Shown one piece after another: positions 631-34,922 of a DNA stretch of 64,000 nt. A program made the position numbers and the translations under genes. The notes under the pieces are model-generated. The model ran no database searches. It was given only the letters and a program-made list of their open reading frames with translations, and was not told the DNA's origin. This DNA is from Eremomyces bilateralis CBS 781.70. Lineage: Eukaryota. How positions within the stretch are numbered: the first letter of the stretch is position 1; each line of letters starts with the position of its first letter. Location of the stretch: NCBI GenBank assembly GCA_010015585.1, contig ML975149.1, one strand, 5' to 3'.

Positions 631-700
631 GATTATCATGTTCTTAATAATGGTAGTGACGAGGAAGCCTCCCAGAGAACAGTACTAGCAAAAGGCGTTG

Positions 701-731
701 TTCAGGTTGAACCCGTAATGTGGCCGTATGT
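701..731 (-). pseudogene. 5S rRNA 5' fragment
   Basis: TTCAGGTTGA...ATGTGGCCGTATGT matches 918-940 of the intact copy apart from a 7-nt insertion. It has the same GAAGCTTTTC flank as the intact copy. Confidence 0.7.
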
Positions 732-821
732 ACGTACTAGCGATTGAAGCTTTTCGCAACATAAACGAGCCGTAGATTCATTCCGCCCACTAAAAGCTTG
801 CTACAATGGTCAAAAATAAAA

Positions 822-940
822 ACATACAGCAATAGGAGTTCCCACGTGGTCACCCACCGTAGTACTATTCTATCTCTAACCTGCTTGAGTACGGCAGAGC
901 GGACGGGATGCCCTATATTCAGGTTGATGTGGCCGTATGT
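822..940 (-). rRNA. 5S ribosomal RNA gene (119 nt)
   Basis: Minus strand reads ACATACGGCCAC...GGGCATCCCGTCCGCTCTGCCGTACTCAAGC...TAGTACTACGGTGGGTGACCACGTGGGAACTCC...GCTGTATGT. The termini pair (helix I) and an oligo-T Pol III terminator follows. Confidence 0.92.
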
Positions 941-1007
941 AGCGTTATGTGAAGCTTTTCACAATATCAACCTAGCAATCTGCAAAATTCAACAAAACAA
1001 AACAAAA

Positions 1008-1048
1008 ACATACAGCAATGGGAGTTCCCCTATGGTCTCCCAGCAGTA
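1008..1048 (-). pseudogene. 5S rRNA 3' fragment (~40 nt), interrupted
   Basis: ACATACAGCAATGGGAGTTCCCCTATGGTCTCCCAGCAGTA parallels 822 onwards and has an adjacent T-rich terminator on the minus strand. Similarity stops abruptly at about 1048. Confidence 0.8.
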
Positions 1049-1302
1049 TAAACGAGGCCGAAATCAGAGGGTCAATACCGCCAAAAGACGAGGGTCCGTC
1101 GAAAATACTCTCTCTGCAGCCATGGTAAGGATTGTAAAGAAGCTGTTTCTCCTTAGTTTTCCGGTCTCGCGCTCAGTCAGTCTTTTTCACAGTCTACAGT
1201 CCTCTCATTCAGTTCTAGTTTCATCGGTTCGGCGGTAGTCGACGCTATCAACGCTCCAAACAACAAAAGTTCTCTACGTCTATTCAAAGAAACGTCTTAA
1301 CA

Positions 1303-1992
1303 ATGGCGCTATGACGCTTTATTAGAAAGGGCGAAGCTAGAGAATAGGAGGCAAAGGAGCTTCTGGCTGGTTTCCAGAGCATTCCCCTCGACGTTACGGT
1401 CCCAGTGTCGGACAGAACTTCGTACAAGCGCGGCTACGCCATGAGGCTTTTCAAAGAGTACGGAACACTTGGATTTATCATGCTTATGACCTATACTCAT
1501 ATCCTCTAGATACGTTCGCGATGTCCTACACCGCGACCCGGACGATACCTGGTTATTCCTTTTCAGCTCTTCACCAGAAGAGGTAACTTTTGCTCAGGAT
1601 ATATGTCGTGCCTTTCTCCTGACCTATATCTCGGACTCATCGGTCTCCAGGGTTGTGTTGGGAGATCAAGGATCTGAGGAGGCCTAATACGTTACTCGAG
1701 TGTCAACCGTCCTGATACTCTGGAGAGCTCTCATGTAGGAAGGAGACGAAGCAGTCTTTGTACCCAAAAGAAGCGAAAACCAGCACACTCAAAACCAATG
1801 GACACTCGTAAACCCTAGTGGTAAACTAATTATAGGGCCAGTCTGGGAGGTTGCAAACGTAACGTCCGCCCTTCACTTATGTATAGAAGTATACTAACGT
1901 CACTGCAGTAGATTATCTACGATTTGCCTTCGCTCACTAGTACTTCTAATAGACTCTTGCGCCAAAAGCGGGCTACGACTGCTTAAGATGAT
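1303..1992 (+). pseudogene. Truncated, RIP-damaged N-terminus of a putative Starship captain (DUF3435-type tyrosine recombinase)
   Basis: ATG at 1303; introns about 1458-1509 and 1859-1908. Spliced frame: MAL*RFIRKGEARE*EAKELL...CRAFLLTYISDSSVSRVVLGDQGSEEA*YVTRVSTVLILWRALM*EGDEAVFVPKRSENQHTQNQWTL...GPVWEVAN*IIYDLPSL...QKRATTA*D. This resembles captain N-termini as I recall them; the catalytic region is absent. Confidence 0.65.
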
Positions 1993-2029
1993 AAATGTTC
2001 AGATATTGTAAAGAGCTTCGGACGGCCTT

Positions 2030-2262
2030 CTCATTTAGCGTCATCGGCCAGTAGTAGCTCGACCACCTTCTCATGGCCTCTATCACTGGCGGTTTGCAGC
2101 ACTGTGCCGTACGATCCGCCTTCCACGTCTATATCGGCACCGTGCGCCAGTAGCCGCTCGGCCACCTTCTCGTGGCCTCTATCGCTGGCGGCTTGCAAGC
2201 GCCGTGCCGTACTGTCCGTCTTGCACGTTCACGTCGGCGCTGTGCGCCAGCAGCCGCTCCAC
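2030..2262 (-). pseudogene. Ankyrin-repeat fragment (NACHT/NLR-ANK type)
   Basis: Minus strand: VERLLAHSADVNVQDGQYGT/ALQAASDRGHEKVAERLLAHGADIDVEGGSYGTVLQTASDRGHEKVVELLL, with one frameshift. Confidence 0.8.
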
Positions 2263-2714
2263 TGCATGTATCAAGCCCCCAAATGAAGCATAGTATAACG
2301 CTGAAGCTGGATCTCCGCTCTTAGTTGGCTTATTATTCTATGGCCAATCTGGCTGATAGAGGCTGTAACAGTTTCAATGGGACTGTGGGTAATGGCAGAA
2401 AAATTGTCCGACAAACTCTTGCAGTCTTTCGTCCTTGCTTTAGCCGCTACGGCGTGGCCTATCTAATATCTTGCGCCCTAGCGGCTGGTATGCAGCGTTC
2501 AACTATAAGTACAGGTGTTCCTGCCCTTCGCTTTCAGAAATCAAGCCGTTCCTGGTCAGAGCTGCTTCTTCTTCCGCCTAAGTACGGTAACCTCTCTACT
2601 AATAGTCTTTCTAGCTGTTCTGTGTCTATGTACTTGTCAGACCTTTCCTGCTCCTCCTCTGCTTCTGTTTACAAATTATCGCTCGTCTACGCTGTGTATT
2701 TGAGTACTGTGGAT

Positions 2715-4230
2715 AGACTGCCCGGAATTGCTCCAGGAGCCCTGCCCTGAGGATCATCTTCGCTGCTTGCACTGCCATTGACGAGCTACAGAGAATGCGC
2801 TTGATGTCTACGCATGGTTGCCTGCCTGACCACATTCGGTCTCGTTCGTCGGTCCAGTTTCAGCATTCAAGGAGAATGTGCCGCACCGTTTGCGGCCCGT
2901 GACCGCACTGGCATTGGTCGGTATCGGCCCTGTTGATGGCGTGGAGATACGCCGGGAGGCTGATCTTGCCCGTGCGCATCTGAGTGACCACTGAACTGAT
3001 TGCTCTGTGGGTTCCAATGCGTGTGTCGAGCGTCGCTTTCCCAGGCCGGACTCCGAGCTTGAAGAGCTCTCTACCATGCTTGGTCGTTTCCCACGATCTC
3101 GCCCATTCGCTTCTCATCGTTTGACGGATGGAAGATTTTGAGGTGGCTATTAAGGTCCGTAGAGAGTCTGGAGCCGGCGGAGGTTGGGGCCGTGTTGGCA
3201 CGTCCGAGTTGAAGCCCGCGGCTTCCTTTGCGGCTTGATCTGCTAATTCATTGCCTGGTACTCCGACATGTGCCGGGATCCATCGGAAATGCACATCCCA
3301 CCCGTGGCTATGGAGCGCGTCGAGTGCTTGTATGGCCTCGGCTAGGATATACTGACCCGACCAGTGCTTGAGGTTCCGTATGGCTTGGATGGCCGCCTGG
3401 TTGTCGGCGAATATGGTGCACTTGCCGGGGGTGATGACAGTCGTATGGATATCGAGCATCATTTGCAATGCTAACACCACTCCCCTGAGTTCAGCCGCGT
3501 ATACCGTGGACGTGGTGGATGTGCCCATGTATTCCGTCTGCCTCATGTGGATGCCACTTAACTGGAGCGTGGGTGCTACTGCGGCTGCACCGACGGGGCC
3601 GCTAATGCAGCTTCCGTCTGTGTAGATGCGTATCGTTCCTGGCTCTGTGGTATCGTGGTCCTTGATCGCTTCTTCAGCGGATTCGTTGATATTGATGACT
3701 GGTGGTGTCCACCACGGCGGGACGACGTGCGTTAGGCGTTTCTCGAGTCGCTCGAGCGAAACTTTGTACTTACGCTCTAAGATGCTCTAGAGTTGGTCAA
3801 GGGGCCCTGCGCGTTGTATCTTCGGCAGGTCCTCCCTGGGACGCCGTTGTTGTCCTCAGGTGCGGTCATGTCGTCGTACAGCGGGGTGGTTATGATGCGC
3901 ATTGTGGCTTCTAATGCTGTTTGTCCGAGTTGCAGTTGTGCAGGGAGCAGATGTGCTTCTATATCGACCGCTGCACCGGCCGTTGTGCGGAAGGCTCCAG
4001 TGATGGATTGGGCTGCTCGTCTCTGTATCCTCTTGATCGCAGGTACCATAGCGTTGCCTCGACCACCGCCAGGGGCGTGCCATGCCGAGCAGCCATAGAG
4101 CATCTGGGGGACGACCATTGCCCTGTCGTAGGTTGATGGTCCCCGTTCCCCACGTTGAAGAGGCCAGAGCCGACAGGGCGGAGAGGCGCTTCGTAACCCT
4201 TGTTTCTATCTCCTCGCGGTGGTAATCCCA
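2715..4230 (-). mobile_element. 5'-truncated non-LTR retrotransposon (Tad1-like LINE): RT C-terminus, RNase H, CCHC knuckle
   Basis: [81 protein letters not shown]; frameshifts and stops present. Confidence 0.92.
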
Positions 4231-4231
4231 C

Positions 4232-5333
4232 GCAAGCCTGGTGTCAAAGGCTCGACGACGGCACGGAATGGAATCCTCTCCTAATGACATGGCTCCTGGA
4301 AATCCGTTCGCGCGACAATGATCGGCCTCCACAAGACCGATCTCGAGACGATGAAGACTCTGCCCGTCGCATGCGTCTTGCTATTGCTGCCTTCCGCGCC
4401 CGCGCAGGTCTAGACGACAACTCCCCTGAACGGTCATCCGGAACGCCCACCGAGGGACCTTCCTCCCGCCGCACCCTTCGACCCTGCCTGGAACGACTAC
4501 GAAGCGGCCCGCCGGGACGAACTGGGCACATCGAACGGCGAACCAACCCACACATCCAATCCGACACCTTCTCTCCTAATGGTCCCACTTCCAACGGCAC
4601 CAAAAATAACAACACTCCACCCCCTCCCCGCTCTTCCGGCGCCACCTCAATCCAAATCGCCCCTCCCCCCGCCCCTCACCTCATCTCTTCCACCTCCTCC
4701 CCTCCCCCCCGCCCCACTCACAACCACCTCCCGCCCACGCAACCCACGCAACCGCTTCCCTTCCCCCCCCGCTCCCGCCGCGCCCAAGCCAGCGCCCTCC
4801 GCCACGACCAGCCTCGACCGCCTCCCCCTCCCCGAAGGGCGCCCCACCATCTATCCCGGCCCTCGAGTCATGGGCGACAGCCCGCGAATCCTAGGCGACG
4901 GACCCCTGAATTTTAGGTGATGGCAGGCTGATGGGTGATGGGCGGTTAATGGGCGTCGTGGCGTCCGTGCCGCCTAATATGTTTATTCCGAGGATGAGTG
5001 GGCATATACGGCAGAGTACCAGGGGAAGTGTAGCGGGGTTGAGGATCGTGGGGTTGGCGTGGAGTGAAGATTATGAGAGTATGGGGCGGGTTGAGCAGAT
5101 AGCGGAGGGAGAGCGGGGCGCGGAGTGAGTCGGTTGGGAAGGGTGGCGTGGGTAGGAGGGGGAAGATGGTGAATGGAGAGGTGGAAGATCGAGAGATGGA
5201 TGGAAAGGAGGAGAAGGAGAGGGATGCGGATAGGAGGAATGGGGTGCGGTTGTGGGTTGGGACAGAAGAGGGAATCTTCGAGATGAATGTGAACCTTGCG
5301 GCGAGGTGTTGGAATTCGTTGGTGGCGATTTGA
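4232..5333 (+). pseudogene. 3' fragment of a host-type gene, low-complexity, ending in a WD40-like blade
   Basis: Broken frames end in GLAWSEDY...LWVGTEEGIFEMNVNLAAR, resembling C-termini of fungal WD40/DUF2415-type proteins. No 5' part is present; the fragment abuts the LINE. Confidence 0.4.
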
Positions 5334-6137
5334 GTCGCCGGACGTTCTCGCCGGTTTCTTCTGTCCTTTCACCTATCACTCCACCGTCTCCAGAGGCATA
5401 TTTTCAAAGTCAATTGAATTTGAGGAGGCCTACGTCCGGCGATACGGTGTTCATTCATTCCGTTCCTTGCGTCAACCTATCATTCCTCGCCATGATACCT
5501 CTGCAGTGCGCCGGGGCGGAAAGGCATTCGGAGTTGGAAATGGTCAGTCATGCATGAATGATGTGATTTTGAGATATGGGATCACGATTTACGCTCGCTT
5601 GAGATAAGCGGAATAGAGGGTTCGCAATTGTGTTAGTATGTCGATAGGCTTCGATGAATGGATACCTTTGTTCTCTTCCTTCGGATATGGATGAGTGCGC
5701 GTTGTAATAGACTGCCCATCAGAGAGCGCCTAATACCGTACATGTCCGAAATTCCGAGGATGCCGATGATGTATGAACTCGATCGAAGGATATAAGGTTT
5801 GCCATTTTCCATCCACTGCGAGGTACCCCGTACAAAGATACTGTTCCCGAGAAGTCCGAAAGGTAATTACCTACAGGTATGGTAGTTAGTATCCAACACC
5901 CCTACTAGAGCCCCAGATATGAGGAGTTAACTCAGTTAGGGACAAGCACCCCTCAGTAAACGCTGCACGAGCACCAAACTATTCAAACCAAAGGTTTTGC
6001 AATACGAACAATCAACAAGGCTAACTATTAAGTTGTAGTGAGCTAACTAGATGGATATCTGTCGCAATCTTTCTCTCTGCCCTCTCGCTACAATGTGCGT
6101 GTCGTGAAAACAGTCCTTACCGTGTCGCATCTCCAAA

Positions 6138-7083
6138 ATGGCAGGCTTCCGTCGAATATTCTCTACCGTTCATGTTTTGTTCATTGCTGTTCTAATCCAA
6201 TCCGTCTCGTCTCAAACAGCAGTAACGAACAGAATCATCATTAAAGCGTATCCATCGGATGGTGCGGTTCTCGGTGAGAAAACCACCCTCGAATATGAGG
6301 CACCAACAAACGATGTATGTGAACCCCAAAATTCGATGTGTCCTGTATATGATTGAGAAAGCGCTCATATATCTTCAAATTTAGCCCGTGAAGATCGAGC
6401 TCTTCTGGGATGGTTCGTTCAACGCAACCGTCGGTAAGTACGCAGTTCATTCAATCGGGCAGCGCGTGGTCAGCGCTTGCGGAACTTTCTTCTTCCTTTC
6501 CCACGCGAGGACTTATCCGCTGATCTTGTTTGTCATGATAGGGAGCGGGACGGACGGCTCCTTCGATTGGACTCCATCCACCTCTCTGGTAGCAGGACCC
6601 GATTACTACCTGACGTTCAGCCAATCCATAAGCAACTCCGCCCTAGGGTTACTGAATTGGTCGGACCCGTTCCCACTGCTGAGAAAAACGGAGAATGGGA
6701 TAGTCACTTCTGACGGACCGACTAATTTGCCATCCTCGACGTCGTCATCCGTACCATCTTCTTCACCAACCGGAGAGACATCATCCCCTTCATCCGACAC
6801 AGCTGGCAAAACCGGTCTGTCAATCGGCGAGAAAGTCGCCATTGGCATCACTGTACCCATCGCCGTGATTATCCTCATCGCTGCCGCCTTCTTTTTCGGT
6901 CGACGGAGAGCTGCAAAACGAAAGTCTGCGGTGGCTGAACCGTATACTGAGAAGCCAGAATTGGATGGAACTGCGAAAGAGCATGATATATTGGATGGAC
7001 GAGAGGTCGTCGCGTGGGAGTTAGCCGCACAGGACAGTGGAAGAGACGGGAAAGCAAGAGGGCCGGTGAGTGAGTTGCCTTGA
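6138..7083 (+). CDS. Type I membrane protein: signal peptide, Kre9/GPI-like beta domain, Ser/Thr stalk, one TM helix, short tail
   Basis: Signal MAGFRRIFSTVHVLFIAVLIQSVSS; two introns (about 6315-6383 and 6433-6541); GSFDWTP...DYYL motif; TM GLSIGEKVAIGITVPIAVIILIAAAFFF followed by RRR; KPELDG/ELP tail motifs. Confidence 0.8.
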
Positions 7084-7781
7084 TTGGTGCGAGAAAGATA
7101 TGTCGCATAGGCTGGATAGACAGGTTGCGCTGTCTGAACACATGCGTACCACGCATCCTCTCATGTATTCTCTCCGAACGAAGAATACCACGACTTTAAT
7201 CTGCAATATTAAAGTAAATGCTGGACTTCGAAAGCGCGACAGCAATTGCATCCTCAAGTTGCCAGAAACTCCATCATCGAGATACGACAGGCGACATCTT
7301 CCAGGTCGAAGTTGGAGCATGCTGTCAACCAAATGTCTCTATTTTCCTTTCTCAACGTTCAAGAAGCCATGCAGTTAATGCATTTCTGCCTTGAATCCTA
7401 GCGTTGTTTGTCTCGTCTTTTGAAGGTACGGAGTCTCCAAAGTCCAGGGAGCCGGTTTCAGAAGAACCGAGAGCGAAAAATACGCCTTGCATGGAAGGTG
7501 ATCAAGTTAAGGACACCGCCAACAGAAGTTATAGGACCCTGCCAGACACTGCAAATGTTGCACAGAACACGCAACCACCCTTGCGGTATATCCTCCCTAA
7601 GGCTAAGTATGGCAAGATCCGACTCGAAGGATGGCAATGAGGGTTTATTAAATCCGTGCTTAGTCCATACGTGCAGTAACTCTTAACCCTTTTATTCCAG
7701 AGCACGCCCGCGCCTGCGGAGCGCTGCTACTGTTTCTCATGATGGAAAATCTTCGCGGTTTCACAGCCTGGCTTCAAGAGA

Positions 7782-8415
7782 ATGGCGAGAGTTTGTTATA
7801 ACTTAGTGCTACAGACTGTACTTTTCGTTCTTATTTATGTTCAATTGGTCTGCTCTCAAAACGTTGAGCCCCTTCGGACCACATGTTATCCAGCGCAGGG
7901 CGCAAGAGCTGGCGAGACGACGCTTATCACATATGACTCTCCAAATCAGCAATCGGTACGGTGACAATTGCGCTCTTGTCTGAATACATCGACTGACGAT
8001 TTAGCCTGTCACGATAGGCCTCACCAAAGGAAACGTCGTTCATATAATCACAAGTACGTTGTCCAGGACCAAACCAAGATCCTCAAACGACACTCGGTTC
8101 GATATGTTGTGTGCTGATACCATAACCAGGTACCGCAACTGGCGGATCATTCAGCTGGGTCCCAGCTCTTGATCTTGAACCCGCAAACGACTATGCCCTC
8201 ACGATCAACCAAGGCGACCCAGTCAACTATTCCAGCCAGTTCGCCATAACTCGGCCAATCACCACTTCATCAGTGACTGCGAACACTTCCTCGCCCACCG
8301 GTTCCAGCTCATTGCCATCGAATTCATCTCCTTCCTCCACCGCTGCTCCCGAAGCCGGAGGCAGCGGAGGCTTAAACACCGCTGAGAAAGCCGCATTAGG
8401 CGTCACGATCCCGAC
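7782..8415 (+). pseudogene. Tandem paralog of the 6138-7083 gene, truncated within the TM helix
   Basis: Same two-intron layout; YPAQGARAGETTLITYDSP, GSFSWVPALDLEPANDYAL, GLNTAEKAALGVTIP, after which similarity ends. Confidence 0.7.
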
Positions 8416-9165
8416 CAGGCGCTGCCAGTATTACAGGCCACTCCCTGAATGCAGTCCTTGCTGCTGCTCTCTTGCCAATACTTCTTAGCATCCTTGGCTA
8501 AATGTCCGGAAACGTACATATCTACTTTAGTCTATCACAGCCCTATCTTTATTTCCAGCCTCATCAATAACCTTTCACCAAGTTTTACACTCAATGAATG
8601 CATGGGACTAATCCAACTGCTGTCACTCCTTTTAATTTCTAGTCCGAGAAATAATTTACAGTCTTAACCAGAGGATATGATGCTGTCAATTCAAATCCCT
8701 CATATTGACCTATTGAAGTGAGTGGCAGAGACTCTCAAGGGCTATCATGTCATTCCTCCGCTTGCAAAGTGTCCAGACCCCAGATGTTCGTCGTCGCTTT
8801 CGAAGGGAACTGTTAAAGCCAATCCAATTGTTTACATTTTATACACCTGCTAGTGACGAGCGATTAGCGAAAGTGAGCATCTGTGGCGTAATTGCGCTTT
8901 GGCATCGAGCTCACGCGTATGCGATGCTCAATATTTGCGTATTTTAGTTTTAGAGAGACAATGCGGCGCCACTGTGAAATTCCACAAACATGAAGGCAAT
9001 TATTGACAACTGCCTTCATACACAATTTCCTTCAAATCGCGTTTCTACAACTATTTCGCGCATGTACTTTGTTTGCTGTATAATCTGGAATGCATGTCCA
9101 TATTATATACCACAGAAATCATCTAAAACAGCCAGTACGTCGCTTAATATGGCCTTGCGACCATT

Positions 9166-9879
9166 TCAAAGCATGCCATAGATGATCAACCCAAAACCCC
9201 CGGCCACCATATTGGCGACAGCCCCTTCCATCTTCACAGCTGCGCCAGTAAACGTAGCCAGGGAGGACGAGGTGCGAGTCGCGGACACTCGAATTGTGCC
9301 AGGCGCCATACCACCGGTCGTTGACCGTGCACCATCACAATGCCAGTGATCGCCGTGCGGCTCACAGCCATAGGATGCCGTCGGACTTGGGTGCGGTGCA
9401 CCCGTCCCTGAAGCGTGGTCCTCGCCGTGGGAGGAGGGCATAGCGCCAACAGCGGAGCTCGATGTAAAAACGATCGCTGACTCGGCACTGGAGACCGTCA
9501 CGCTCACGGGAACGCTGGTGGTGGGGTGCGAAACCGGACCCTCGCAGTCCCTGAAGACCTTAACATGGACGAATAGAAGACGCGCCCGGCAGTGAAACCT
9601 ACCAGTGGTCATCATGCGGGACGCACCCAACCGACTCGGTCGGGGATGGTCCAGGAGAGACGACGGAGGCGGCGGACGTGGGGGGCGCAGCGGGCCCCTC
9701 GCAGTGCCTAGGAAGAGTTGTGAACATGAGTTATAAAGTAAGTGGTTTGCAATGGCAGCTTACCAGTGGTCACCATGCGGGGCGCAACCGAAAGACTCAG
9801 TGGGAGATGGCCCAGGGTCCTGTGCGAGGGCAGTGACAAAGCTGCAGAGAGCGGAAAGGAGGACAGCGGACAAGCGCAT
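9166..9879 (-). CDS. Secreted, probably GPI-anchored protein with three PSPTxSxGCxPHxDHWxCxG repeats (putative metal/zinc binding)
   Basis: Exons 9879-9764, 9707-9603, 9550-9166. Signal MRLSAVLLSALCSFVTALA; repeats CAPHGDHWHC, CVPHDDHWDC, CEPHGDHWHC; Ser/Thr linkers; C-terminal FTGAA plus hydrophobic tail. Confidence 0.85.
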
Positions 9880-10035
9880 ATTGATAGTAAACAAGCAGTT
9901 GTAAGCTTCACGTGTGCCCAAGTTCGAGAAGATCGGCGGATATCAGTCGAAATATGATACTCGCGACGTCTTTACGGTCAAAGTACGTATGTATGCACCG
10001 GCTCCAAAGAATAAGTATAAGTAATCAAGAGCAGT

Positions 10036-10540
10036 TCGCCATCAAGGTATAAAGGGGTGACCTATCGTCACGATGAGTCCTATTGCCAAGTAGCCGGGCG
10101 TTCTGGACTAGGAAAAGAGCGTGGGATTCTGCATTGCTCTACTTCTGGATACGCGACTCGTAGCACCCCACACGCGATATCGGATTTATTTCATAATGAT
10201 ATTAACACTCAGTCGGATCGATTCCATTAAGTAGAACCTCAGTGTCGAACTCTTAAGTCCATTTAATGAGCTGTGTATTTTCTAGAACTGGACTCCAGGA
10301 CAAATCACTTTGATACGAAGACGAACCAGCAGTCAAGTACCATAGTCAAGCAGGGAAGATCGCATGGGTGGCCCAAGCTCGAGCTCTCCAGCTTCACTGC
10401 TTCAGTGCTTCACTGCTTCAGAGCTTCTCGGCTAGTATTTCTCTTCGTCTCTCAGTTCTCGCCATCAAGGTATTCCACTGCATCGCCCGCAGAGACTGGC
10501 ATCAATTACTCACTCACTCACTCACTCGCCATCAAGGTAT
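10036..10540 (+). promoter_or_regulatory. Three identical TCGCCATCAAGGTAT 15-mers (10036, 10459, 10526), putative ZafA/Zap1-type zinc-responsive elements
   Basis: Exact triple repeat in a divergent promoter. CAAGGT is the core of the Aspergillus ZafA binding motif. Confidence 0.7.
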
Positions 10541-10713
10541 TACCACAAACCGTCTACAGCTTGCACAATGGTGCGCCACGTAAAAGAACATTTTCATACT
10601 GTGTAGGCCTGCATAGCCAGGAAGCCCAGGATATATGTAATGGAACTGACTGAGGACGGCATACCAGAAGTTTGTTAAGTTTCTCTCTGTACAGTGTTTA
10701 TTATATTCATGTC

Positions 10714-12361
10714 ATGGCACATCTGCTGCTCTTCATCTTGAGCCTATCTATCGTCATTTATTCGACTTTTGCGGTTACTCTGGATGGATCGCTCTGTCTA
10801 GCCAAAGAACAGCCTGAGCTAACGCTAAATGAGATCGCGGTACGTTGCCCATTTGCTATTTTACTTACACGGATCTCCTGGATTCGACATCCCTTTATGT
10901 CAAGTTGGGATCTAGTGGACGTTGATCGAGCATGCGCAAAGCAGGGACAGCAGGCCCTTTTCGGCAATCTCGTGGCATACCATATCACGTCTGTGACCGT
11001 TCAAAAGCCGCCAAAGAAACAAAGTTCCCCGCGCCAGCGCGAGGAGAAAGTTCGCTTGCGCAGCCGGCTGGAGCGCCAGAGAGGTAGATGGAACTCGCAT
11101 CACCCACGATATCGCCTTCTTGACGCCATCTATGGCTTCTCACGCTATCAAGAGCAAAACGGAGTCGAACTCCGGCGATGGAAAACCTTATACAAGCATG
11201 TTTCTATACCACAGAAGGCAGTACGTCAGAACAATACAACAACGTAAACTGGACGCTCACTCATCGGGCTCACCCTACGCTAGATGCTTGAGCATGTAGT
11301 TTATTACTCAAAGAAGCTCGAAGCCACCGAACAGCTAATCCGGAAGAACCAGAATCTGTGCGACATGATTGTGCAGAATGCCCTACGGTTCTACGAAGTC
11401 AAGCAGATCGAGTTGGACCAGTTTATCAAAGACGCGGACACGAATAAACGGAAGGCAGATCGAACGAGTGTCTCGCAGGCGCTGAAACACTTCGTTCGTG
11501 ACTGGGCGAGCGACGGCGAGCATGAGCGAAAGGCTACGTTTCCATGTATTCTCCGAACACTGGGAACCTTATTTCCACAGCGAGCTGCAGAGCCAGGGAA
11601 ACACCAGCGGGTACTGATCCCCGGCGCTGGGCTTGGACGGCTGGGTTACGATATTGCGGCCCTTGGAGGTGAGTTTCCTTCTCCACTATGGGCTGCTGGA
11701 GGTGGCGACACTATTGATGTTCGCGACTAAAAATCCATGTCAGCCCGCATTGCTAATGCTATGACTAGGGTTCGACGTAACCATCAACGAATGGTCCATG
11801 TATATGAATGTCGCTTATCGCGTCCTCGAAACGGAGGAGGACCTCTCACCCTTCACCTTCCATCCTTTCATTGACTCCTGGTCACATCACGCTACTTCCG
11901 CCGACATGCAGCGCGCTGTATCCTTCCCCGACCGACCCCTCAACACTTCGTCCGTCGTCCTCGTCGAAGGCGACTTCACCACCGAATTTCAGACCGGACA
12001 CAGCGACTACGATGCCATCGTCACACACTTCTTCATCGATACGGCACGCAATCTGATGAGCTACCTCGAGACGATCCACCGCACCTTGCGACCGGGCGGC
12101 TACTGGATCAACTCGGGTCCGCTGCTGTACGGGAGTGGGCCGTTTGTGCAACTGTCCCTGGATGAAATCATCTTGTTGTCGGAGGCATTGGGATTTGAGT
12201 TTATTGAGACGAGTCCGAGGTGCGGCGAGGTCACGTTGTCAGGGAAAAAGGTGAGGTCGATGTCGGCAATATATGGGTCGAATGAGAGGGCACTGAACAT
12301 AAATGGATATAAGGTGCAGTTTTGGGTTGCGAGGAAGCGGTTAAGGAACGGAGATCGGTGA
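10714..12361 (+). CDS. N2227-like / carnosine N-methyltransferase (CARNMT1)-family SAM methyltransferase with hydrophobic N-terminus
   Basis: LKHFVRDWASDG..ER, VLIPGAGLGRL, NEWSMYM, HPFIDSWSH, EGDF, VTHFFIDTARN, GGYWINSGPLLY. Introns 11221-11283 and about 11669-11769; the 5' exon structure is uncertain. Confidence 0.88.
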
Positions 12362-13122
12362 TAGGCGAAGACACGGCCGATTTTACCTCGAAAAAACCAC
12401 TACTTCATATCGAGGCAAGGTATTGGACAGTACGCACTCCTATGGAGATATGTTGTATTGTCCGTATTCACAATAGCCAGGATCCTGAGATCGATTTCTA
12501 AATATGTGGTTCAGATACCGTACTATCCAGCGAATACCTCTAAGTCTATTGGTGTTTTGTCATGCTACAGAACACCGTCCATCCTATTACAGCTTAAGTA
12601 AATGTCCTGTCAGTAAAACCAATGACTTGCGCCTTTTCAAAAACCTGCCCAAGCGTCTCCTTGAATTTGCTATGGGCCGGATCATTATTGACGTAGTAAT
12701 CTCTATCCTCGACGCTCTTAAATTCCTCGACAAACGCATGCGTGATGCCATTCTACATGGTGCCTCTTGACGTTATCGATCCCCATTGGTACTGATTCCG
12801 AGAACCTGTTTACGGGCCTCCATCAGCTCCATTTGGGCACATCTAGAACCTTGTTGAAGTTGAATATTCCAGGTCTTCATTAAGTGAGGAGCCGGAATCT
12901 ATCTCAGGAATGATGAGGAGAACGAGCTATATACATACATAGGCTAGTCCCGGTTAGGAATGAATCACAATATGCATCACCTACTCTAACCAGACGATGA
13001 TGGTTGCTTCCAACAAACCCTTTGGTCACGCGTCGACGCGGTCGCCCGAATCCATCCTCGCACGCCTCTCAATAAATACCTCTCGCAGATCCGGGCGCTA
13101 GAGAACTATCATATATCGAATA

Positions 13123-14579
13123 AGTCAACGGACCCACTTTCCATGCAACCTAGATTCCGTGCACCCCTTGAGATAATACGTAGATACTTAGATCGCTTTT
13201 GATCAATGAAATAAATTCAACAACACCATCTAATATTATCAGGATGCCTCGTATTAATGAAGAGGCAGTCCAACAAGCTATTAATGCTTTTCATGGCCAA
13301 GAATTTGACTCGCTGAATAAATGTGCGGATGCGTACGGTATCAAGAGATCTACACTCCGGGACAGACTCAACGGCAACGATTCCCACCAAAATAGTTCGA
13401 AGAAACTTCAGAAGTTATCTCCCGTGTCCTCAGTGGCTCAAGAAGAAGTTTTTGCCAGAAAGCAAGCCCATGAACTCCCCGGCAGCGAACGGCGCGCAGG
13501 AATGCCGCCTATTAATATGCGATGGGCACGGCTCCCACGCCACGGTCGAGTTCATGAAGTTGGTCAAGGACAACCGCGTATTCTTTGTTGTTTTTGCCCC
13601 CCCATTGTTCCTACCTCCTCCAGCCCCTTGACGTCGCGTGTTTCTCGCCCCTAAAGTCCAAATATCATAAAGAGCTCTCCCAATTAGCATCATTAGATGA
13701 TTCCGCACCTGTAAAAAAGCATAATTTTATATATATATACTCTAAATCCCGAAAAGAAGCTTTGAATTCGTACAATATTCGTGCCAGCTTCCGTGGAACT
13801 GGAACGGTTCCGTTCAACCCAGACAAAGTATTAAATAGCACCCAATTAAACGAGAACCATCAAATACAACGTCATGTGACTCCAGAGCCGCAGTATACTT
13901 ATGTATTCCGTACGCCCAAAGGCCTCAAAGATATATACGATGCCAAATTAGACGAAATGGGGGGCCGGGATTTCAGGAGGTTTCAGGGGAAGGTCGCAAA
14001 GGCACTGGCAGAGAAGAACACGGAAACCGCCCGACTCAAAGCCGAACTTCAAAGGGCTGAAAATACAATTTCAGACTTAGGAGGGCTTGCTAGCAAGAAA
14101 AGGAAACGGGTTCAGCCCAATCTGAACGAACGATTTGTTCAGATTGACCAGATTGTTGCGGCTCAGGAGGCAGCTAGGGGAGAGGGAACATGTCGGAACT
14201 CCGCGGCTATTACTTAGTCACCGCCCCTTGTAGATTACATAAGATTACATAAGCCTGGGTATATATACCCGTCAAGGTAAACTATGTACTTCTGACCGAA
14301 TACAAGCATCTCACTGCCTCTGAACAGGTATCCTATTGTTTCCGTGATTGATTGACACGCCAAAACGATCAACAGAACAAAAGGCTGCAAAACGCCTTCA
14401 AATTAACCCGGAGGAAACGTCTTGATAATTGCAGAAGGCAATGTTTAAGTCACTCTATCCACAATTTCAATTACAGCTATAGAAAAATATATGGTGGTGG
14501 TTACATTCCGCAAAATCCATTCGTCTTTGTGTCCTATTGGAGTTGTGGTGGGGGTGCACGGAAACTGGGTCCGTTGACT
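13123..14579 (+). mobile_element. Fot1/pogo DNA transposon, internally deleted
   Basis: TIRs AGTCAACGGACCCA.TTTCC.TGCA at both ends, each flanked by TA. The HTH (ADAYGIKRSTLRDRL) is joined almost directly to LICDGHGSH and LQPLDV motifs, with frameshifts. Confidence 0.92.
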
Positions 14580-14777
14580 TAACCGCCACAAACATCCTTC
14601 GTGTCTGCAAGCTGCTTCTCAGGGGACGAGACGTAGACACCCAAAGAGTTCGCCAGTAACAACCTTACCGATATATGCCGCAATATAGCTGGCATATACA
14701 GCCATATGTTTCGCGGAATTCTTGTTACAATTCGCCAGGGGCCAGTAAGAGATGGGACTCTGGAGCTGTTACTCAAA

Positions 14778-15810
14778 TTACACCAAAAATTGCTTCTTCC
14801 AGAACTCAATCTGGCAAGCGATGACTTTCTCGAATGGTTCCCCCTAATAACCGTCGTAATGACCGCCAGGGAAGATATAGATGTCCTTGGGCTCCCGTGT
14901 ACGCGAGTAGGATTCGATGGCAATATCGGTAGGTGTAAGCTCATCCTTGTCCGCAACGCACATCAGCAATGGCGTGGGAGAGATGTGATGGATGTAGCCC
15001 GACGCATTGTATGCTCAGAAGGCTTCGATGCTAAAATTCTGGCATTAGTGGACGCGGGCTAACTCGATTGTTTGGTCACTTACCTCTTAACTGTGATTTC
15101 GTTCCTTACTGTGGGGTACTTTTTTATCCCTGAAGTCACATACTCGTAACTATCTGGAGTCGGAAGATTGCAAAGTTCCTCCTCGGATTGGTTGGATACG
15201 TTCTTTATCGTCATTGCTGGTTCGCCTCTAACATGTCCTTGTCGATCTGTGTCTTGTCAGAGACTTATACCGGAATGATATTTTGAAACCGACTCACCCT
15301 TGTCGAATAGGGCTTCTATGTTCTTCACCAAATCGTTTCTGGTCATCCTATGGAAGTTGGTCTATCCATCTGTGACAGGGAACTGATGCATATTAATTAG
15401 CTGTGCTACATACTCGGACAGTACCCTGCATACCTGGCTGATCACCGCCTTCACTCTTCGATCAACGGCTGCAACCGTGAGAACATGAACGGCACTGTAG
15501 CTCGTGCCCCAGACTACTATCTTCTTCTCATCAACGTCTGGTCGTAGCTGAGCATAGGTGATTGCGTCACTGTAGTCGGCGATTTGATGAGCAGGAATGA
15601 CCTCCTGTCGAGGCTCTCCATCGCTCGCACCAAGATTTCGATTGTTGTAAAGCAGCACCGTGACGGGAAGCTCGGCCGGAAACCGCTCGGTGAAAGGCAA
15701 CATGCCCATATATTTTATCGCGCCAAAGCCATTGCTCATCACAATGCAAGGAAGCTTGGCCCCTTTGGAGGCAACCGGACACGCCCTTCTCTTTCTTTGA
15801 CCCCGCAACT
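14778..15810 (-). pseudogene. Alpha/beta hydrolase (peptidase S15/DltD-like) pseudogene
   Basis: NLGASDGEPRQE, QIADYSDAITY, WGTSYSA, DRRVKAVISQ, PTPLLM..ADKDELTP, PGGHYDGY*. In-frame stop and degraded 5' end. Confidence 0.75.
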
Positions 15811-16290
15811 ATGAGGTTCTACTCTAGCAGCACAAGAGACAACTTCCATGTACGTGGAGACAGGATGACTGATGAAGGGTTGCGGGACATGCTCTTGATG
15901 GATGTCTGAGAGTGTAGCGGGGACGGAGACTACGCCGAAGTTCCCTCTCAGACCCGCACAATAGTACTACGGGTTCTACGGCACTATTTCCTCTCCTGCA
16001 AATGTATGCTTGGGTCCAAGTTCCGACTCTCTATCCTTGTCCAATGTCTACCGTGCCTTGGAGTAAGGTAAGCTTCTTAATCTCTCATAGAGAGTGCCAG
16101 ACATTTGAAACCAGAGTTACGTAGACCACCCGTACCCCTTTTCATCCACTTCATCCAGCTCGGACCCCGCACCATTGGACGTTGAGCCATCCACTGCTCT
16201 AACAAGATGGTGTCCAGCGACCACATACGAGCAAAGACATTGAATCTGAGCATGCGCTGTTCAAAGCCAAAGTGACTAGAACTATTTAGC

Positions 16291-19174
16291 CTAGTTTAAA
16301 CTCTCTATAGTGCTGTAGAATCTACGTGATAAATCCCACACGCTCAAGTTTTCGATAGCCTGAAGGGCAATGGCCTTGAGTTTTGCGTAGCTGCCATCTT
16401 CGTAAATATCGTGTGCGTCGTCAATGGAAGGATAGCCACAGTTCTTGTTGATCCAGAGGACAACTGCATTCTGCTGAGCAACTGTACGAGACCATGGGAT
16501 ACGGTCGAGCCGGACGGAGTCTTCACTTTCGCTAGCTTCATTGGCCAAAGTGCCACTAGCCGTGGCGGGAGTGCTGAGATTGACAGCGCAGGATTCCCTG
16601 ATTGAACTACGCGTCTTCCTCTTTTCTGGGCCGAACTTGACGAATGCAAGAACATATGCATAAGCGTCAAAAACCCTCATTATCTCGCATGGGGTGTTGA
16701 CTGTGCATTCTCTAGAAATTGCAATGATGGATGCCGCATGGTATACGAGTCGTCTCGCATGGACAGGATCACTAGCGAGGACCATTTGCAGCCTGGTCTT
16801 TGCCATATCCAGCTCCATGTCGTTTGGGCTCGTCCCGTTCTGGCAGATAAGTATGATCATTTCCATCATTTCTTGTTGGCTGTACAAGTTCGCATGATGA
16901 TAAATAAGGCAAGTAATGCTGATTGTGTTAGGTACCAGTCAATTCAGTCACAGTTTGGGCACTTACTTGACATGAACAAGGTCTTGAGGTCGGGACGGTC
17001 TTACTGCAGAATCATGCAGCAATTTCAGACTCTGGAACAGATATTTCCTGAGAGGTTTCTGAGACTCTGTGAACGAATTCAGGGCGTAAAGGTTTAAGAT
17101 GGAGTTGTCCATCTCCTTCAGATTCCAGAAAAGTCGAGCGATGGTTTGAGCGCAACAGCGCTTCCACCATGATGGCACATTGTCAGAAATCGCTTTTCCG
17201 TTCAAGATTTCACGAAGGAGCGGCCGAAAAGGAGCTCCTTGAAGTGAATGTCCTGTTAGGGACGCCATGGACGCCCATGCTACGGCAGATTGCGCCTCCC
17301 AAAGGCTCTCATCGCAGGGCAGCCTGTCTGGAAGTTCTTGCAAGCTCACCACGCCTCGCTTGGTCGTCAGAGTCGAGAGACTGTTGTCATATTCGAAAAC
17401 ACTCCACGCGAGTCTCTTTGCCATCTCAGCAGCCCGCCACTGATGCCATGCAAACTCGAGTTTTGCAGCATCTTTGGGGTCGAGGTCTTCAATGGAAGGG
17501 ACCTTTAAGCTCCATGGATCGGCGATGTTTATGGAGCGGTACACGCCGGTTCTCCTAAGAGCTTGCACCAGGATTCCGCGGAAGTTGTCGGCGCGCTCAT
17601 GGAGTGACGGAACGGCGACACCCAAGCAGTAGACTTGATGATACAAGGATGCAGCTGCGAACTCGATGTTCTGATAGTCGGCAGGTCCGCGTGCATACTG
17701 CGATTCCACTTCTAGTCAGTAAGATTCCAGGTAGCACGCAAAGTCGATGGAGTATACCGCTTCGTTCAAATGCCGAAAACATATCTCGGCCAGCATGCTT
17801 GACTCCGCGTCCAGCCCCTTCTTCCTATGATACTTTGTAGACCCAAGACATGCTAAGGCAGCTATGAGGTGTGTGGGACATTTCGCAATGTTCCATGTCG
17901 CCTGGTGCATGACCGGTAACCCAGGATAGAACTCCGCAAAGTAAATGGTGACCATCTTTTCGAGATGGTGGGCCGCGGCGCTATGTTCCGGTGAATCAAT
18001 ATCTGACGGCAGATACGGTTTGGAGAGGACGCTGCTGATACTGCTCGCGAGTGTTGTACTCGCAACCGAAGAGCACTGGCTAAGCCTTCGCCTAGGAACT
18101 GTTGGCTGATTCACAGTGTGATGCCTGTTCACTTGACCAGGGGTCGGAGGAACGGGAGCGCCTGAAAACCATGGCAACGGAGAAAATTCCGGGGAAGCTA
18201 AGCGCGCAGCTTCCGCGAAAGCTGTTGCTGTTGGTGCATCCATCGATTGGCCGAAAACAGTCTGTTGAGCAAGCATTGCGGGTGGGAGCGCAGAGCCCTG
18301 TTGATCGAATCCAAGCCAATCTATTCCCCAGGGAGCACAAAGGTCCCAGTCGAGGTTGGCGAGATCCAAGTCAGATATGCTTCTTGGATCGTCTAATTGG
18401 TCTATCAAGGAGCTATTGTCTTGCAAGTCGATTCGTGTCGGCTCAGATTGCTGAATGTCCCCGAGTGGTGAAGAATCAGGAGGAAGATTGAGACCATATA
18501 AGCCTCTGTTCAGTCTCGTTGGATTAGGAGGTGGGTGCTGGATGTCATTGAGAGGGAACTCCGGTTGCTGGGCATCGATGCTTCCATCGTCACGAGATGG
18601 TCGGGATGAAGACATGGACGCTTGGATCAAGCTTTCTGGACTGTAGTGGGTCGCTCTGGGCGAAGCAGATGCATCGTTCCGGGTACTTTCTGAAGAATGA
18701 TGCGCAGATTCTGCCACATTTACGTTGACATTGCTCGACAGATTCTGGAAAATGCATTCCGTGCCTCTAGTGACGCAAGAATCGCAAGGCGGTGACCGTG
18801 AACACTTTAGCTTCCGTCGAATGCAATTCTGGCATGAAGTTTTCCGTATATTCGGCAGTGTGATGCCGTGAACCAACCGGTCATGACGCAAAAGTATGTC
18901 CTTTCGGCTGAAAAGCTTCCCGCATGGTTTACATTGGAAGCCCTCCGTCCGACCAGCTCCACTGTCAAGAAAAATCAGTAATGGATCGAGTGAAGCATCG
19001 GAGACGTACCGTGAATGAAGTTGTCGGTGCCGCTGGAGATGCGTCTGGCGCGTCAATTTCACCCCACATATATCGCATTGGAATGCTTTGCGGACAGGCT
19101 CTTCCTATCACCACTTGTGATCAGTGTTGGCTGGAAGGATTGAATGGAACAGACCATACCGGTGCTGCTGGCAT
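16291..19174 (-). CDS. Transcription factor: two C2H2 fingers, Zn(II)2Cys6 cluster and fungal-specific TF domain
   Basis: FQCDICGVKLTRQTHLQRHRQLH, FQCKPCGKLFSRKDILLRHDRLVH, CQNCIRRKLKCSRSPPCDSCVTRGTEC, YFAEFYPGLPVMHQAT, LPCDESLWEA; multi-exon. Confidence 0.88.
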
Positions 19175-20223
19175 CTTTTTACGACGAAAGTTTGTCTCTT
19201 GGCCATTCCCGTGAGCTGGTATGTGTAGCGCAGAGTTATGTTGCCTATTCGCTGGATAGCATGGTGGTACAATCACATCCCTAGGAGAAGCAATCTCGGT
19301 AATCACCAAGATACGTATTTAGAAGTCAATTGGCCCAAGGTGGTTAACTAAGGCTAACTAAGTTAGTTAACTTAGGCACCTTAACTAATTAGTGTTTCTC
19401 CTCAAGCCAGACCTTGGTAAATGGTAAATGGTAATGCACAGTAGGCACTCCCCCAAGCCACATGTGGGGTAATTAGTGGGGATCGATTGGAGACTGGTCA
19501 GGAGTCAGGAGTACTCGGGACATCGAACTCCAACTAAAACCTTTTCCGGAACGGCTAATTATCGCGAACAAGAGTATTCAGCTCTCGATGGCAGCCGGAT
19601 CCGCCATCGATATTGAAGTTTGTTGCCCGTCACCAAACTGCTAGCATCGCTCATCAAGTATCCTACTGCTCCGTCCAGCTCCTCTGGCACCGTCAATCGT
19701 TTCAATGCATTGCCTCGGTGAAATACTCCTCTAGCGTATGGTCACTCGCTATTACCGATCACAACATCTTCGTTAAAAATGGCCTATGTCGGTATTAGTG
19801 CAGAACGTTCCCCGAAGATGGATGCATCGTGCCCAGGGCTGATACTGTTCACGCGAATTTTATACTGTGCCATCTCTGCAGCAGCCTGTCGGATCAGACA
19901 AAGAACCGCAGGCTTGGAGCAGACGTATGCTGTGGCAGTCCGAGGAAATACCGCTTTGTGTCCCGCCGTCGAGGATATACAGATGACATTGCCTCCAGTT
20001 TTTTGCTTAATCATATGTTCGGCGCAGATTTGTACCGTCGAGAGCATTCCGTTCACCTGCCCACCAGTCAATGAGAAAGGTCATCTCATTGCTGAAAAGA
20101 GGACTTACATTGACGGCGAACGAGGCGTTCATGTCGTCTACGGTGTGTTCCATGAATGGATTATCTACTATAATAGCTGCTGCTGCGATGCTTTGTCACT
20201 CAGATTGTGTTTGGAGACGACTA

Positions 20224-32590: not shown

Positions 32591-32722
32591 TCTTCTGGCG
32601 CGATCCATTTTGTCTTGGTGACGACGACGTTGTAGAACTGGAATCAAATTTGATTATCAGAATTAATAGGAATGGTAGAACTATTTGCAACGCTCCTCCT
32701 TAATCATTATCTATCATCCCTA

Positions 32723-32755
32723 ATGCCATCGATTTAGGTTAATGTGGCCGTATGT
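32723..32755 (-). pseudogene. 5S rRNA 5' fragment (~33 nt) with upstream flank
   Basis: ATGCCATCGATTTAGGTTAATGTGGCCGTATGT aligns without gaps to ATGCCCTATATTCAGGTTGATGTGGCCGTATGT (908-940). The flank GAAGCCTTTG...ATATAAAC resembles the flanks of the other copies. Confidence 0.7.
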
Positions 32756-34922
32756 ATTAGAAGCCGAAGCCTTTGAGGATATAAACTGATTCGGAGTTCA
32801 CTCTAGGAAATACTAAACCTGTCTGCATCTTCACCAGCTTACCGTTCTAATTTCTGGAGCGTCTCCACCAATTGGGGTCTGGAGATACATCATCAATAAT
32901 TCCGGTCATTATCTAATAGGGCCATATCCTTGCGAACAGTCCTGATAACGGCTTCGGCGATGCTGCTCCTTGGGCAGCATCTCCCAATATCTTCGGACCC
33001 CGAGAAGCTCCCCAGTCTCTAGAATTGGCTTGTTTATATCTGCTGCTACGAAGTGACGACCTGGGACCCTGTCCTTATATACTGTTCAGACCGGAAGATC
33101 TGGAGTTGATCCGGTTTAGTCAGATCAGTGCGAGAAGGCACATCACACGAGAAAGAGGAAAGATAAACGAAGAATAATAGTTTTAATAACTAACTAGTTA
33201 ACTATCCATTAGTTAACTAACTATAACCTAACTATTTAAATAATGATCGGATATCTATAGATCATTTACGTTGCCCGACTAGTCATAGCAGTCAGGACGG
33301 TTGTTTGGCCATTCAGCCTTGTGATCGTACAAGTGGTGACTGGTGTACCCTCGGGAAATGGTCTCTGTCACAGTTCTAAGCAGGGAGATCTGCATGGTTA
33401 CAGCCTATATTAATATTGACTAGTGCTCGGCTCCCTTGTATAACCTCGCGTGTGCTGTCTTCGTTACACTACATACCGGTATTTATCCTCTCGTCAGGCC
33501 ATAAGACTTGCAACTCACTCCCCCATGGTATCAATTTGAACCACAAGCAATTCGACTCGTTACGTTCCGCCAAAGCCTACCCTTGGGAACACCCTTGAGG
33601 CATAGTTATCGCGGAAAGGATCTGGTACCTTGATGATCAACATGGCCTCCTCCCCAAAGTCCATTATAGGACCTGGGAACAACATTTCGCCCCAGAAGCA
33701 CCGCAGACCATGATCGAAGCTACACGTAGAGCCTAGAAACAAGAAATTCCATTCTAGGGTCAGCTTCGATGCCAAAGATACAGCGGGTAATACCGGACGT
33801 CACCGCCGGCCTGGAAACAGAGAAATCCCAGATCGTCTATATTTAGGTCCTCTAATTCTGTCTCGACCGGAAGACATCGATCACCGTTAACAGAGCCGAA
33901 TCAGCAGTCCATAATAACCAACACGCAGGACTAACGCAAGGCCGAATCAGATAAGATGTAATTCATACTTCACGAGGCGCAGGAAGAAGGCCACTCAGGA
34001 GTCCGTGGACCTCACTTTCGCCGGCCAAACGGTCACTGCCCAAAGGAAGCCAAAATTCTTGGGTTACACTCAACGAGAAACTCTCCTTCTATGCTTACAT
34101 CAGAGTCACCACCAAAGCCCAGAGAGGAGAAGCAGCCAATTTTGCAGGGTCAGAAGCAGCTTTCGTAGGTCTTGCTCTCGCGACATGGATGGACTTGCTC
34201 CGTTTTCATCGTTTAGTTCAGGTTTATGTGGCTATATACACCCGATAATGAGGCTTTTAAAGGTACTTTATCAATTGAAGAGCCTCAGAATATCTGTACG
34301 AGAAACATGAGCCCAGGGACGCGATTTAGGGGTGAGGTAATTATGGCCTGGAAGGTGGGGATTGATGAGGATTGAGCGAGTGGTTGATGGCTGTATCGTA
34401 AATACAAATCCAACCAATAAAACAACATTTATTAATACCCCTAACAGCATAGCGTCGTATTGATGACTGAATACGAGACAGATCAGTATATTTGTTGGCA
34501 ACAATCACATCACTCTCCGTCCTTTCAATCTACTCCTTCCAGCTTTCACAGATAGTTTGATGAATTATACGTCCTATGTCAGAGATGTTGTTGGACCATC
34601 GGATAGTAAGCACACAAACTCCAAACCGTCAGTAAAGTCCTGAATCTTGCCAAGCCCCAACGCCCGGGTGATGTCGGACCTGACGATTGGGCGGCCATGA
34701 GGTAATCTATGAGTCCTGTGGAAATTTTACTGTCACGCATGTCATGGAACCAGGAACCCTGTCGATTATATATAGCCCACATCTCCGCCACATAAGACCC
34801 AAGGTAACCTTCCCCTAAATGCGGAGGTGATATTCATCCCATGGTTCAATTCATCCCATGGTTCAATTCATCCCTTCTTGTCCTTCCATGTAACGATCCA
34901 GCTCATTTTCCCACACGTCAAC

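Follow-up and report, generated by a model that had tools for sequence, protein, structure and literature searches.

The stretch of 64,000 nucleotides of Eremomyces bilateralis CBS 781.70 analyzed here (the window; contig ML975149.1, assembly GCA_010015585.1) carries at 1059–1989 what is very probably the 5′ end of one dead Starship copy of the Arwing family (family 9), hit by repeat-induced point mutation (RIP), truncated, and lying in a 5S rRNA gene. The copy would consist of ∼244 bp of upstream sequence and the first 195 codons of its captain, the tyrosine recombinase gene, which span exons 1 and 2 in full and the beginning of exon 3. The stub makes no recombinase and has no function.

A captain pseudogene with two introns and six stops

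When spliced as 1303–1457, 1510–1858, and 1909–1992 on the plus strand, the pseudogene forms a single frame free of frameshifts; it measures 588 nt (196 codons) and contains six stops. With the stops written as X, its three pieces translate to 52, 114, and 64 residues; no stop-to-stop open reading frame (ORF) of at least 100 residues was found on the plus strand over 1303–1992. Searching with exon 2 in this form (P0002) yielded a single protein among 291 candidates, at 75% identity (E 1.1e-46). This protein, P0004, is a hypothetical protein of 793 residues from E. bilateralis CBS 781.70 (PF11917; gene model P152DRAFT_347678). Aligned to the window by tblastn, P0004 gave three collinear matches with a joint E of 3e-69, which omit exactly both introns of the pseudogene. 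The homology is, thus, far above chance, and it delimits the following parts:

1303..1457, plus strand: exon 1; 79% identity to P0004 residues 1–53; stops TGA 1312 and TAG 1345
1458..1509, plus strand: intron 1, GTACGG..CTCTAG, 52 nt; left out by the P0004 alignment
1510..1858, plus strand: exon 2; 74% identity to P0004 residues 53–168; stops TAA 1685 and TAG 1736
1859..1908, plus strand: intron 2, GTAACG..TACTAAC..CTGCAG, 50 nt; left out by the P0004 alignment
1909..1989, plus strand: exon 3 remnant; 65% identity to P0004 residues 170–195; stops TAG 1909 and TAA 1984

The residues of P0004 aligned to the six stops are, in order, R, Q, R, Q, W, and Q. Five of the stops are one transition away from CGA, CAG, CAG, TGG, and CAA, respectively; TAA 1685, aligned to arginine, is two steps away. 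Among the 23 single-step routes that lead from a sense codon to a stop, 5 are transitions and 18 are transversions, and all 5 transitions are C>T or G>A. As transition steps to a stop are of this type by construction, the informative point is that the homologue has R, Q, or W at all six positions.

Assignment to the Arwing family

P0004 carries DUF3435 at residues 195–492. A HMMER scan of 1.84 billion representatives returned 328 relatives of P0004 at E ≤ 1e-3, and the alignments of the full-length ones (600–1000 residues, 25–34% identity) run from residue ∼10 to ∼500, which shows that the N-terminal part is a regular part of the recombinase family. Exon 2 is 25–38% identical to the matching part of the more distant relatives. 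The region 1226–1993 is matched (E ≤ 1e-3; 62 rows of matches) by 57 distinct proteins among 150 relatives of P0004, plus two cluster members. P0005 and P0019, E. bilateralis gene models on other contigs, are partial relatives of the pseudogene.

Other searches gave less. A Pfam scan of the three exon translations returned no family; the DUF3435 model does not reach the N-terminal part. A word-based protein search with residues 1–200 of P0004 returned, from 787 candidates, no protein other than P0004, and one with P0002 against proteins of similar length found no match. Among contigs of JGI metagenomes, a 20-nt pattern taken from the element head had 0 matches, and P0004 gave 56 pattern matches, 0 of which were confirmed. 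A PDB profile search with the family matched only its C-terminal zinc fingers (best E 7e-4), and no recombinase by sequence.

The family name comes from the tables of a published survey of Starships (Gluck-Thaler and Vogan, NAR 2024, PMC11162782), in which erebil1_347678, whose number is that of P0004's locus tag, appears among the fam09 genes as a starfish “tyr” gene; family 9 is named Arwing in Table 1. The same E. bilateralis genome has two further fam09 entries, and only three fam09 genes and one short model are tabulated for it in all (PMC11162782). For the genome as a whole, the tables give 19 “tyr” rows (S3), 15 recombinases once filtered by size, and 0 delimited elements (PMC11162782). 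Because no delimited element is listed, the label “Starship” rests on the gene family and on the 5S setting. No paper naming Eremomyces together with Starship was found in the literature search.

Loss of the catalytic part

Homology of the pseudogene stops at 1989, that is, at residue 195 of P0004, where the DUF3435 match of P0004 begins. Residues 196–793 were not found elsewhere in the 64 kb (remaining tblastn matches had E ≥ 1.6). In the family alignment, R233 and R375 are invariant and K268 and Y406 near-invariant; all four, presumably the active-site residues, lie beyond the break. The junction and what follows it are made up of the following features:

1990..2032: interval containing the truncation breakpoint, between the last aligned codon and the stop of a minus-strand ankyrin frame
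2033..2290, minus strand: 3′ fragment of an ankyrin-repeat gene, approximately three repeats and a single frameshift; Pfam Ank E 7.3e-07, Ank_2 27.9 bits (cut-off 27.3)
2790..5400 (approximate), minus strand: fragment of a retroelement resembling long interspersed nuclear elements (LINEs), with RNase H, zinc knuckle, and the end of the reverse-transcriptase region; frameshifts

Within the ankyrin fragment, 2047–2159 and 2146–2259 form an internal tandem repeat (114 nt, 82%). In the LINE-like fragment, RNase_H of Pfam was matched with E 5.5e-15 and 5e-14 in two scans; the reverse-transcriptase-like motifs were read by eye, and the number of RVT matches in Pfam was 0.

Sequencing runs were compared with the window as well: X1, a coded DNA run; X3, an air-metagenome run from another study; X4, RNA by guess; and X5. 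All were aligned to 641–20640 at 80% likeness. A 330-nt contig of X3 covers 1846–2175 with 1 difference; the junction, thus, recurs in a second data set, so that an error in assembly does not explain it. Contigs of X1 and X4 differ by one ankyrin repeat unit (“goes back 62”), which indicates that paralogues with other numbers of ankyrin repeats exist.

The original prediction, which was made from the letters and a list of ORFs, had described a captain-like gene invisible to the ORF track, with two canonical introns, one frame of about 195 codons, six stops, and no frameshift, and it had supposed that the recombinase catalytic half was later deleted. This description was borne out, with a frame of 196 codons and with the catalytic part absent from the 64 kb. 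That each stop is one transition from CGA, CAG, CAA, or TGG was correct for five of them and incorrect for TAA 1685. The homology searches that it had proposed agree with the captain-like assignment: the sole close relative is a DUF3435 protein listed as a fam09 “tyr” gene, and the full-length homologues carry the recombinase part too.

The 5S rRNA setting and the element end

A small tandem cluster of 5S genes on the minus strand lies upstream of the pseudogene, and a spacer repeat (745–766 and 950–971) indicates a tandem 5S unit:

641..731, minus strand: degenerate 5S pseudogene; by blastn, 5S positions 1–14 at 718–731 and 14–23 at 701–710; internally deleted; adjoins a foldback at 1–630
821..940, minus strand: intact 5S rRNA gene; Rfam RF00001, 85.2 bits (gathering cut-off 38), model positions 1–120
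1007..1058, minus strand: 3′ part of a second 5S gene; 31/36 identical to 5S 85–120; 44-nt direct repeat with 813–856
1059..1302, plus strand: 5′ end of the element and upstream region; a 2498-nt contig of X3 aligns from 1059 and is unlike the sequence before it; 5–14 other X1 contigs

The piece at 641–731, for which Rfam gave no match at E ≤ 10, was read by eye; that at 1007–1058, which alone likewise had no Rfam match at E ≤ 10, was recognized by blastn against its intact neighbor. A diverged full-length 5S gene continuing past 1058 was considered and rejected, as 117 of 300 shuffles reached the observed score.

The start of the element was placed at 1059, where the 5S similarity ends and that of the X3 copy begins; the 80% cut-off of the aligner may shift this point by a few letters. 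A 413-nt contig of X1 covers 1036–1179 at ∼85% identity, so another copy also adjoins the 3′ part of a 5S gene. The 5S break lies ∼50 nt from the 5S 3′ end, and the ATG at 1303 is 244 bp away from the broken gene, reading away from it. A captain leading a 5S-targeting element from its 5′ end would be arranged in this way, and the 5S gene was probably the insertion target. According to the survey's data on curated sites, 23% of Starship insertion sites are in 5S ribosomal DNA (rDNA), at five or more positions; those of the Arwing, Enterprise, and Voyager families are mostly in 5S rDNA, and the Arwing core motif is CCCG/GGGC (PMC11162782). Insertion into 5S, a trait typical of Arwing and not obligatory, is indicated here by the broken piece at 1007–1058 beside the intact gene at 821–940. 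In the left flank of the 2498-nt X3 contig, the motif found at the element start in the window, CCGAAATC, also occurs 20 nt upstream of the junction.

A further 5S piece raises the question of how far the element extends:

32723..32755, minus strand: 5S 5′ fragment (positions 1–33); 28/33 identical, E 1e-4; candidate far-side scar

The stub could, accordingly, be the head of a derelict Starship body reaching from 1059 to ∼32722, with the 5S pieces at 1007–1058 and 32723–32755 as its split target and with genes for a Kre9-like protein, a carnosine N-methyltransferase, a Zn-cluster factor, a short-chain dehydrogenase/reductase (SDR), an amidase, a deacetylase, and an amino-acid permease as well as two pogo-like transposons as candidate cargo. 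Both 5S pieces are on the minus strand and follow each other as the halves of one split gene would, and the far one ends just before the 5S sequence CCCGTC, which is a direct repeat of some Starships (Table S1 of PMC11162782) and fits the published Arwing core motif CCCG. Moreover, the core genes RPN1, RIO2, TOM20, and Exo84 are all located beyond 42 kb. However, the 5S gene is broken at ∼70 on the left and at 33 on the right, with positions 34–69 absent, which does not correspond to one insertion; the number of direct or inverted repeats between the two ends is 0; and, by its RIP indices, the 6–32 kb region does not stand out from the remainder of the window. Starships usually carry accessory families such as DUF3723, patatin-like, ferric-reductase, and NLR proteins. 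None of these was present among the 118 ORFs scanned. A weak 5S 5′ fragment at 34217–34237 on the minus strand (18/21 identical, E 0.33) suggests a decayed 5S cluster instead. A Pfam scan of 32600–34400 in six frames, with stops as X, gave no family. An extended body of this kind is, therefore, considered very unlikely.

Copies of the element in sequencing runs

RIP acts on repeated sequence, and many copies of the element are present in X1. Of the words sampled from 641–2300, 87% were present in X1 and 40% in X3; no RNA run was among the runs listed as containing this segment. Single-copy contigs of X1 have a depth of 196–254. In the bin 1308–1974, the summed depth was 2331, and single positions reached 1721–5206 in 4–11 other contigs, corresponding to ∼7–21 copy-equivalents, a summed contig depth not being the same as a copy number. 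Judged from these contigs, the element family is multi-copy in X1, and many of the copies look partial. At position 1312, 6 X1 contigs (1535.7 of 1767.9 depth) have C where the window has T, and the same is true of 11 X1 contigs (3276.6 of 3741.2 depth) at position 1345; at these two stops of the window, other copies, thus, carry CGA and CAG, respectively. The 2498-nt X3 contig aligns only with 1059–1504 and encodes P0084, a 74-residue model that reads through intron 1; this copy of the element loses its similarity to the window within that intron.

So many 5′ parts could also belong to a compact, 5S-specific tyrosine-recombinase transposon of Crypton-like size, without cargo and present in many copies, mostly as 5′ stubs. 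The ∼7–21 copy-equivalents of the 5′ part in X1 are in line with this explanation, as is the early loss of homology (at 1504) in the second copy, that of the X3 contig. The same applies to the tables of the survey, in which the closest genome has only three fam09 genes, one short model, and no delimited element, and to its discussion, which mentions the “low copy numbers” of Starships (PMC11162782). On the other hand, the closest protein falls into Starship family 9 in the published tree, which is rooted with CryptonF, and 0 elements may reflect one genome per species and poor assembly of repeats, as the authors themselves point out (PMC11162782). In addition, the evidence from summed contig depth is subject to the limit given above. 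A compact transposon is, thus, regarded as unlikely. It is also rather improbable that many 5′-only Arwing heads (∼7–21, compared with three or four recombinase genes) occur together with the stub being the left end of a derelict Starship of ∼31.7 kb. If both were true, the genome would have recorded repeated 5S insertions, mostly abortive or later truncated, and it would offer a first Starship that can be delimited in a lineage from which the survey reports recombinases and no element.

RIP-type mutation

Over 1303–1992, TpA/ApT is 1.30 and (CpA+TpG)/(ApC+GpT) is 0.83, resulting in a composite index of +0.47; the corresponding values for the whole window are 0.69, 1.21, and −0.51. Values of at least 0.89 for the first index and of at most 1.03 for the second are taken as indicative of RIP, and the stub is on the RIP side of both. 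When 690-nt windows were placed along the stretch (n = 6332), 14 reached the composite of the stub; all of these start within 1211–1391 and overlap the pseudogene. Those starting beyond 2700 have a mean composite of −0.55 (standard deviation 0.30) and a maximum of 0.36. The signal extends over about 600–2150 and 2300–2800, which are also repeated in X1, and ends in the unique sequence beyond.

The codons point in the same direction. Compared with P0004 (n = 195), 144 encode the same residue and 51 are changed, with 0 indels. The change can be explained by C>T or G>A alone in 24 of the 51 and by T>C or A>G alone in 5; the remaining 22 involve other changes. The 24:5 split differs from symmetry with p = 0.0003. 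With regard to context, the 25 inferred changes fall on CpA (16), CpG (5), CpT (3), and CpC (1), although only ∼24% would be expected on CpA (p = 2e-5). All six stops are transition-derived, despite 18 of 23 single-step routes being transversions. A comparison with the X1 contigs gave a similar picture: among 39 differing positions listed in 817–2151 (1436 further ones lie outside this set), 13 were dropped and 26 have the other letter in at least 60% of the depth. In 15 of these 26, two of them in the ankyrin piece, the window has T or A where the contigs have C or G; the reverse holds for 3, and 8 are transversions.

Both the RIP-type origin of the stops and the multi-copy history asserted in the original prediction gain support from these data. 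The index check that it had suggested gave a TpA/ApT of 1.30 in 1303–1992 and the most extreme composite in the window, and the excess of C>T and G>A as well as the CpA context agree with it. The element had been thought to be “once” multi-copy; the many diverged X1 contigs indicate that, in this run, the family still is.

A number of observations weigh against the view that 1059–1989 is a RIP-hit Starship head. Some concern the label: the Pfam scan of the three exon translations leaves the stub itself without a recombinase domain, 0 delimited elements are tabulated in the survey for the closest relatives' genome (PMC11162782), and repeat searches of the window found no direct repeat, no terminal inverted repeat, and no second element end. 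The copy figures hold for X1, which may not be the window's own genome. Other observations concern RIP, and most of them would be accounted for by ordinary pseudogene decay, in which the truncated gene drifted under a GC>AT bias and CpG deamination, and the stops arose by the commonest nonsense paths. Tested against a 2:1 neutral GC>AT bias, the asymmetry is weak, with p = 0.045 for the 24:5 split of the codons and p = 0.10 for the 15:3 split of the contig positions. Changes not of the RIP type make up 22 of the 51 changed codons and 8 of the 26 majority positions, from which it follows that ordinary divergence is also large. The context of the 15 contig positions is mixed (CpA 6, CpG 4, CpT 4, CpC 1). 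The GC content of 1059–1990 is 0.47 compared with 0.51 for the window, which is far from strong AT enrichment. Finally, the repeat at 13300–14650 lacks a RIP signature (composite −0.28) at a depth of up to 22966, maybe because its repeated core is short.

Decay without RIP is nevertheless considered quite unlikely. Of the 25 inferred changes, 16 fall on CpA and no more than 5 on CpG (p = 2e-5). The elevated TpA/ApT (1.30) and the deficit in CpA+TpG are confined to the stub and the neighboring repeated pieces; the 195 codons contain 0 indels despite 26% amino-acid change; and the six stops are all transition-derived, as opposed to the 18 of 23 routes that are transversions. RIP, rather than another C>T process, is the probable agent. 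Its extent is light at most, unlike the AT-rich blocks that result from heavy RIP.

The following history is proposed for the Arwing-family stub. An element of the family would have inserted into a 5S rRNA gene of the small tandem cluster. As the family was repeated in the genome, this copy would have been hit by RIP, and C>T and G>A changes, mostly at CpA, would have produced all six stops and many missense changes and no indel. A separate rearrangement, before or after RIP, would have taken all codons beyond 195 and with them the complete catalytic DUF3435 part, and would have fused the stub to an ankyrin pseudogene, at its tail, beside the LINE fragment; it may have been a deletion, an ectopic recombination between repeats, or another event.

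Other features of the window

The foldback at 1–630, adjacent to the degenerate 5S pseudogene, is made up of nested inverted repeats with arms of 175 nt (93%), 63 nt (92%), and, at the ends, 32 nt (100%). It has the look of a palindrome resembling a miniature inverted-repeat transposable element (MITE) and gave spurious weak Rfam matches. In the 5S fragments at 32723–32755 and 34217–34237, C>T or G>A accounts for several of the mismatches with the intact copy.

From 6 kb on, the window contains ordinary genes and two pogo-like transposons, and core genes follow beyond 42 kb. A DDE_1 transposase fragment at 13558–14214 and its neighboring sequence have an X1 depth of up to 22966, compared with ∼245 for single-copy sequence; 13300–14650 is probably a high-copy, short pogo-derived repeat. 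On the minus strand, 20407–21948 is an uninterrupted frame of 514 residues with HTH_psq, HTH_Tnp_Tc5, and DDE_1, apparently an intact pogo/Tc5-like transposase.

X4 contained GT..AG or CT..AC joints within 6314–12894, namely 6314/6385, 6432/6541, 7954/8004, 8053/8130, 9549/9602, 9706/9763, 11220/11284, and 11666/11767. By these joints, the Kre9-like gene, a minus-strand gene near 9.6 kb, and the carnosine N-methyltransferase gene appear to be spliced and expressed. No joint at either intron of the pseudogene was among the X4 joints listed, to which 38 further ones, outside that list, are to be added.

Comparison with known systems

The closest counterparts of the stub are the Arwing captains, represented by P152DRAFT_347678, with which it shares 65–79% identity over residues 1–195, two intron positions, and the 5S neighborhood. 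It differs from them by its six stops, its 51 changed codons, and the lack of DUF3435; element ends are lacking for the stub and for its intact relatives alike. Derelict or RIPped Starships have been described, such as the Wallaby captain with its many premature stops and Starship1 of Letharia lupina, termed “Ripped” in the survey, and they share with the stub a recombinase inactivated by C>T mutation with premature stops (PMC11162782). The authors advise use of the word “derelict” for inactivated Starship copies (PMC11162782). RIP-inactivated Starships and captain pseudogenes are, hence, already in print, as the examples in that survey illustrate; the stub differs from them in that only a 0.9-kb head is left and in that it is one of many partial copies.

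Insertion into 5S is a likeness to Starship Voyager of Macrophomina phaseolina, as described in MBE 2022, and a Voyager genome may hold several copies, each in 5S. However, Voyager belongs to family 10 and is inserted 20 bp from the 5S 5′ end (MBE 2022), whereas the break beside the stub is ∼50 nt from the 3′ end. CryptonF elements are fungal tyrosine-recombinase transposons, as is the stub's family, and serve as the outgroup of the published Starship recombinase tree (PMC11162782). They are compact and without cargo; the distinction made here is that, according to the survey, the closest relative of the stub belongs to Starship family 9 and not to CryptonF.

Measured against these systems, the stub is only mildly unusual, in that 5′-only copies are many and no delimited element is listed for the closest genome. 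It adds one more 5S-associated insertion of the Arwing family, in the Eremomycetales, for which the survey's tables hold recombinases and no delimited element, and it exemplifies copies that gene finders working from open frames miss. The unusually many 5′-only copies beside 5S genes could inform how such elements fail, or get trimmed, after insertion.

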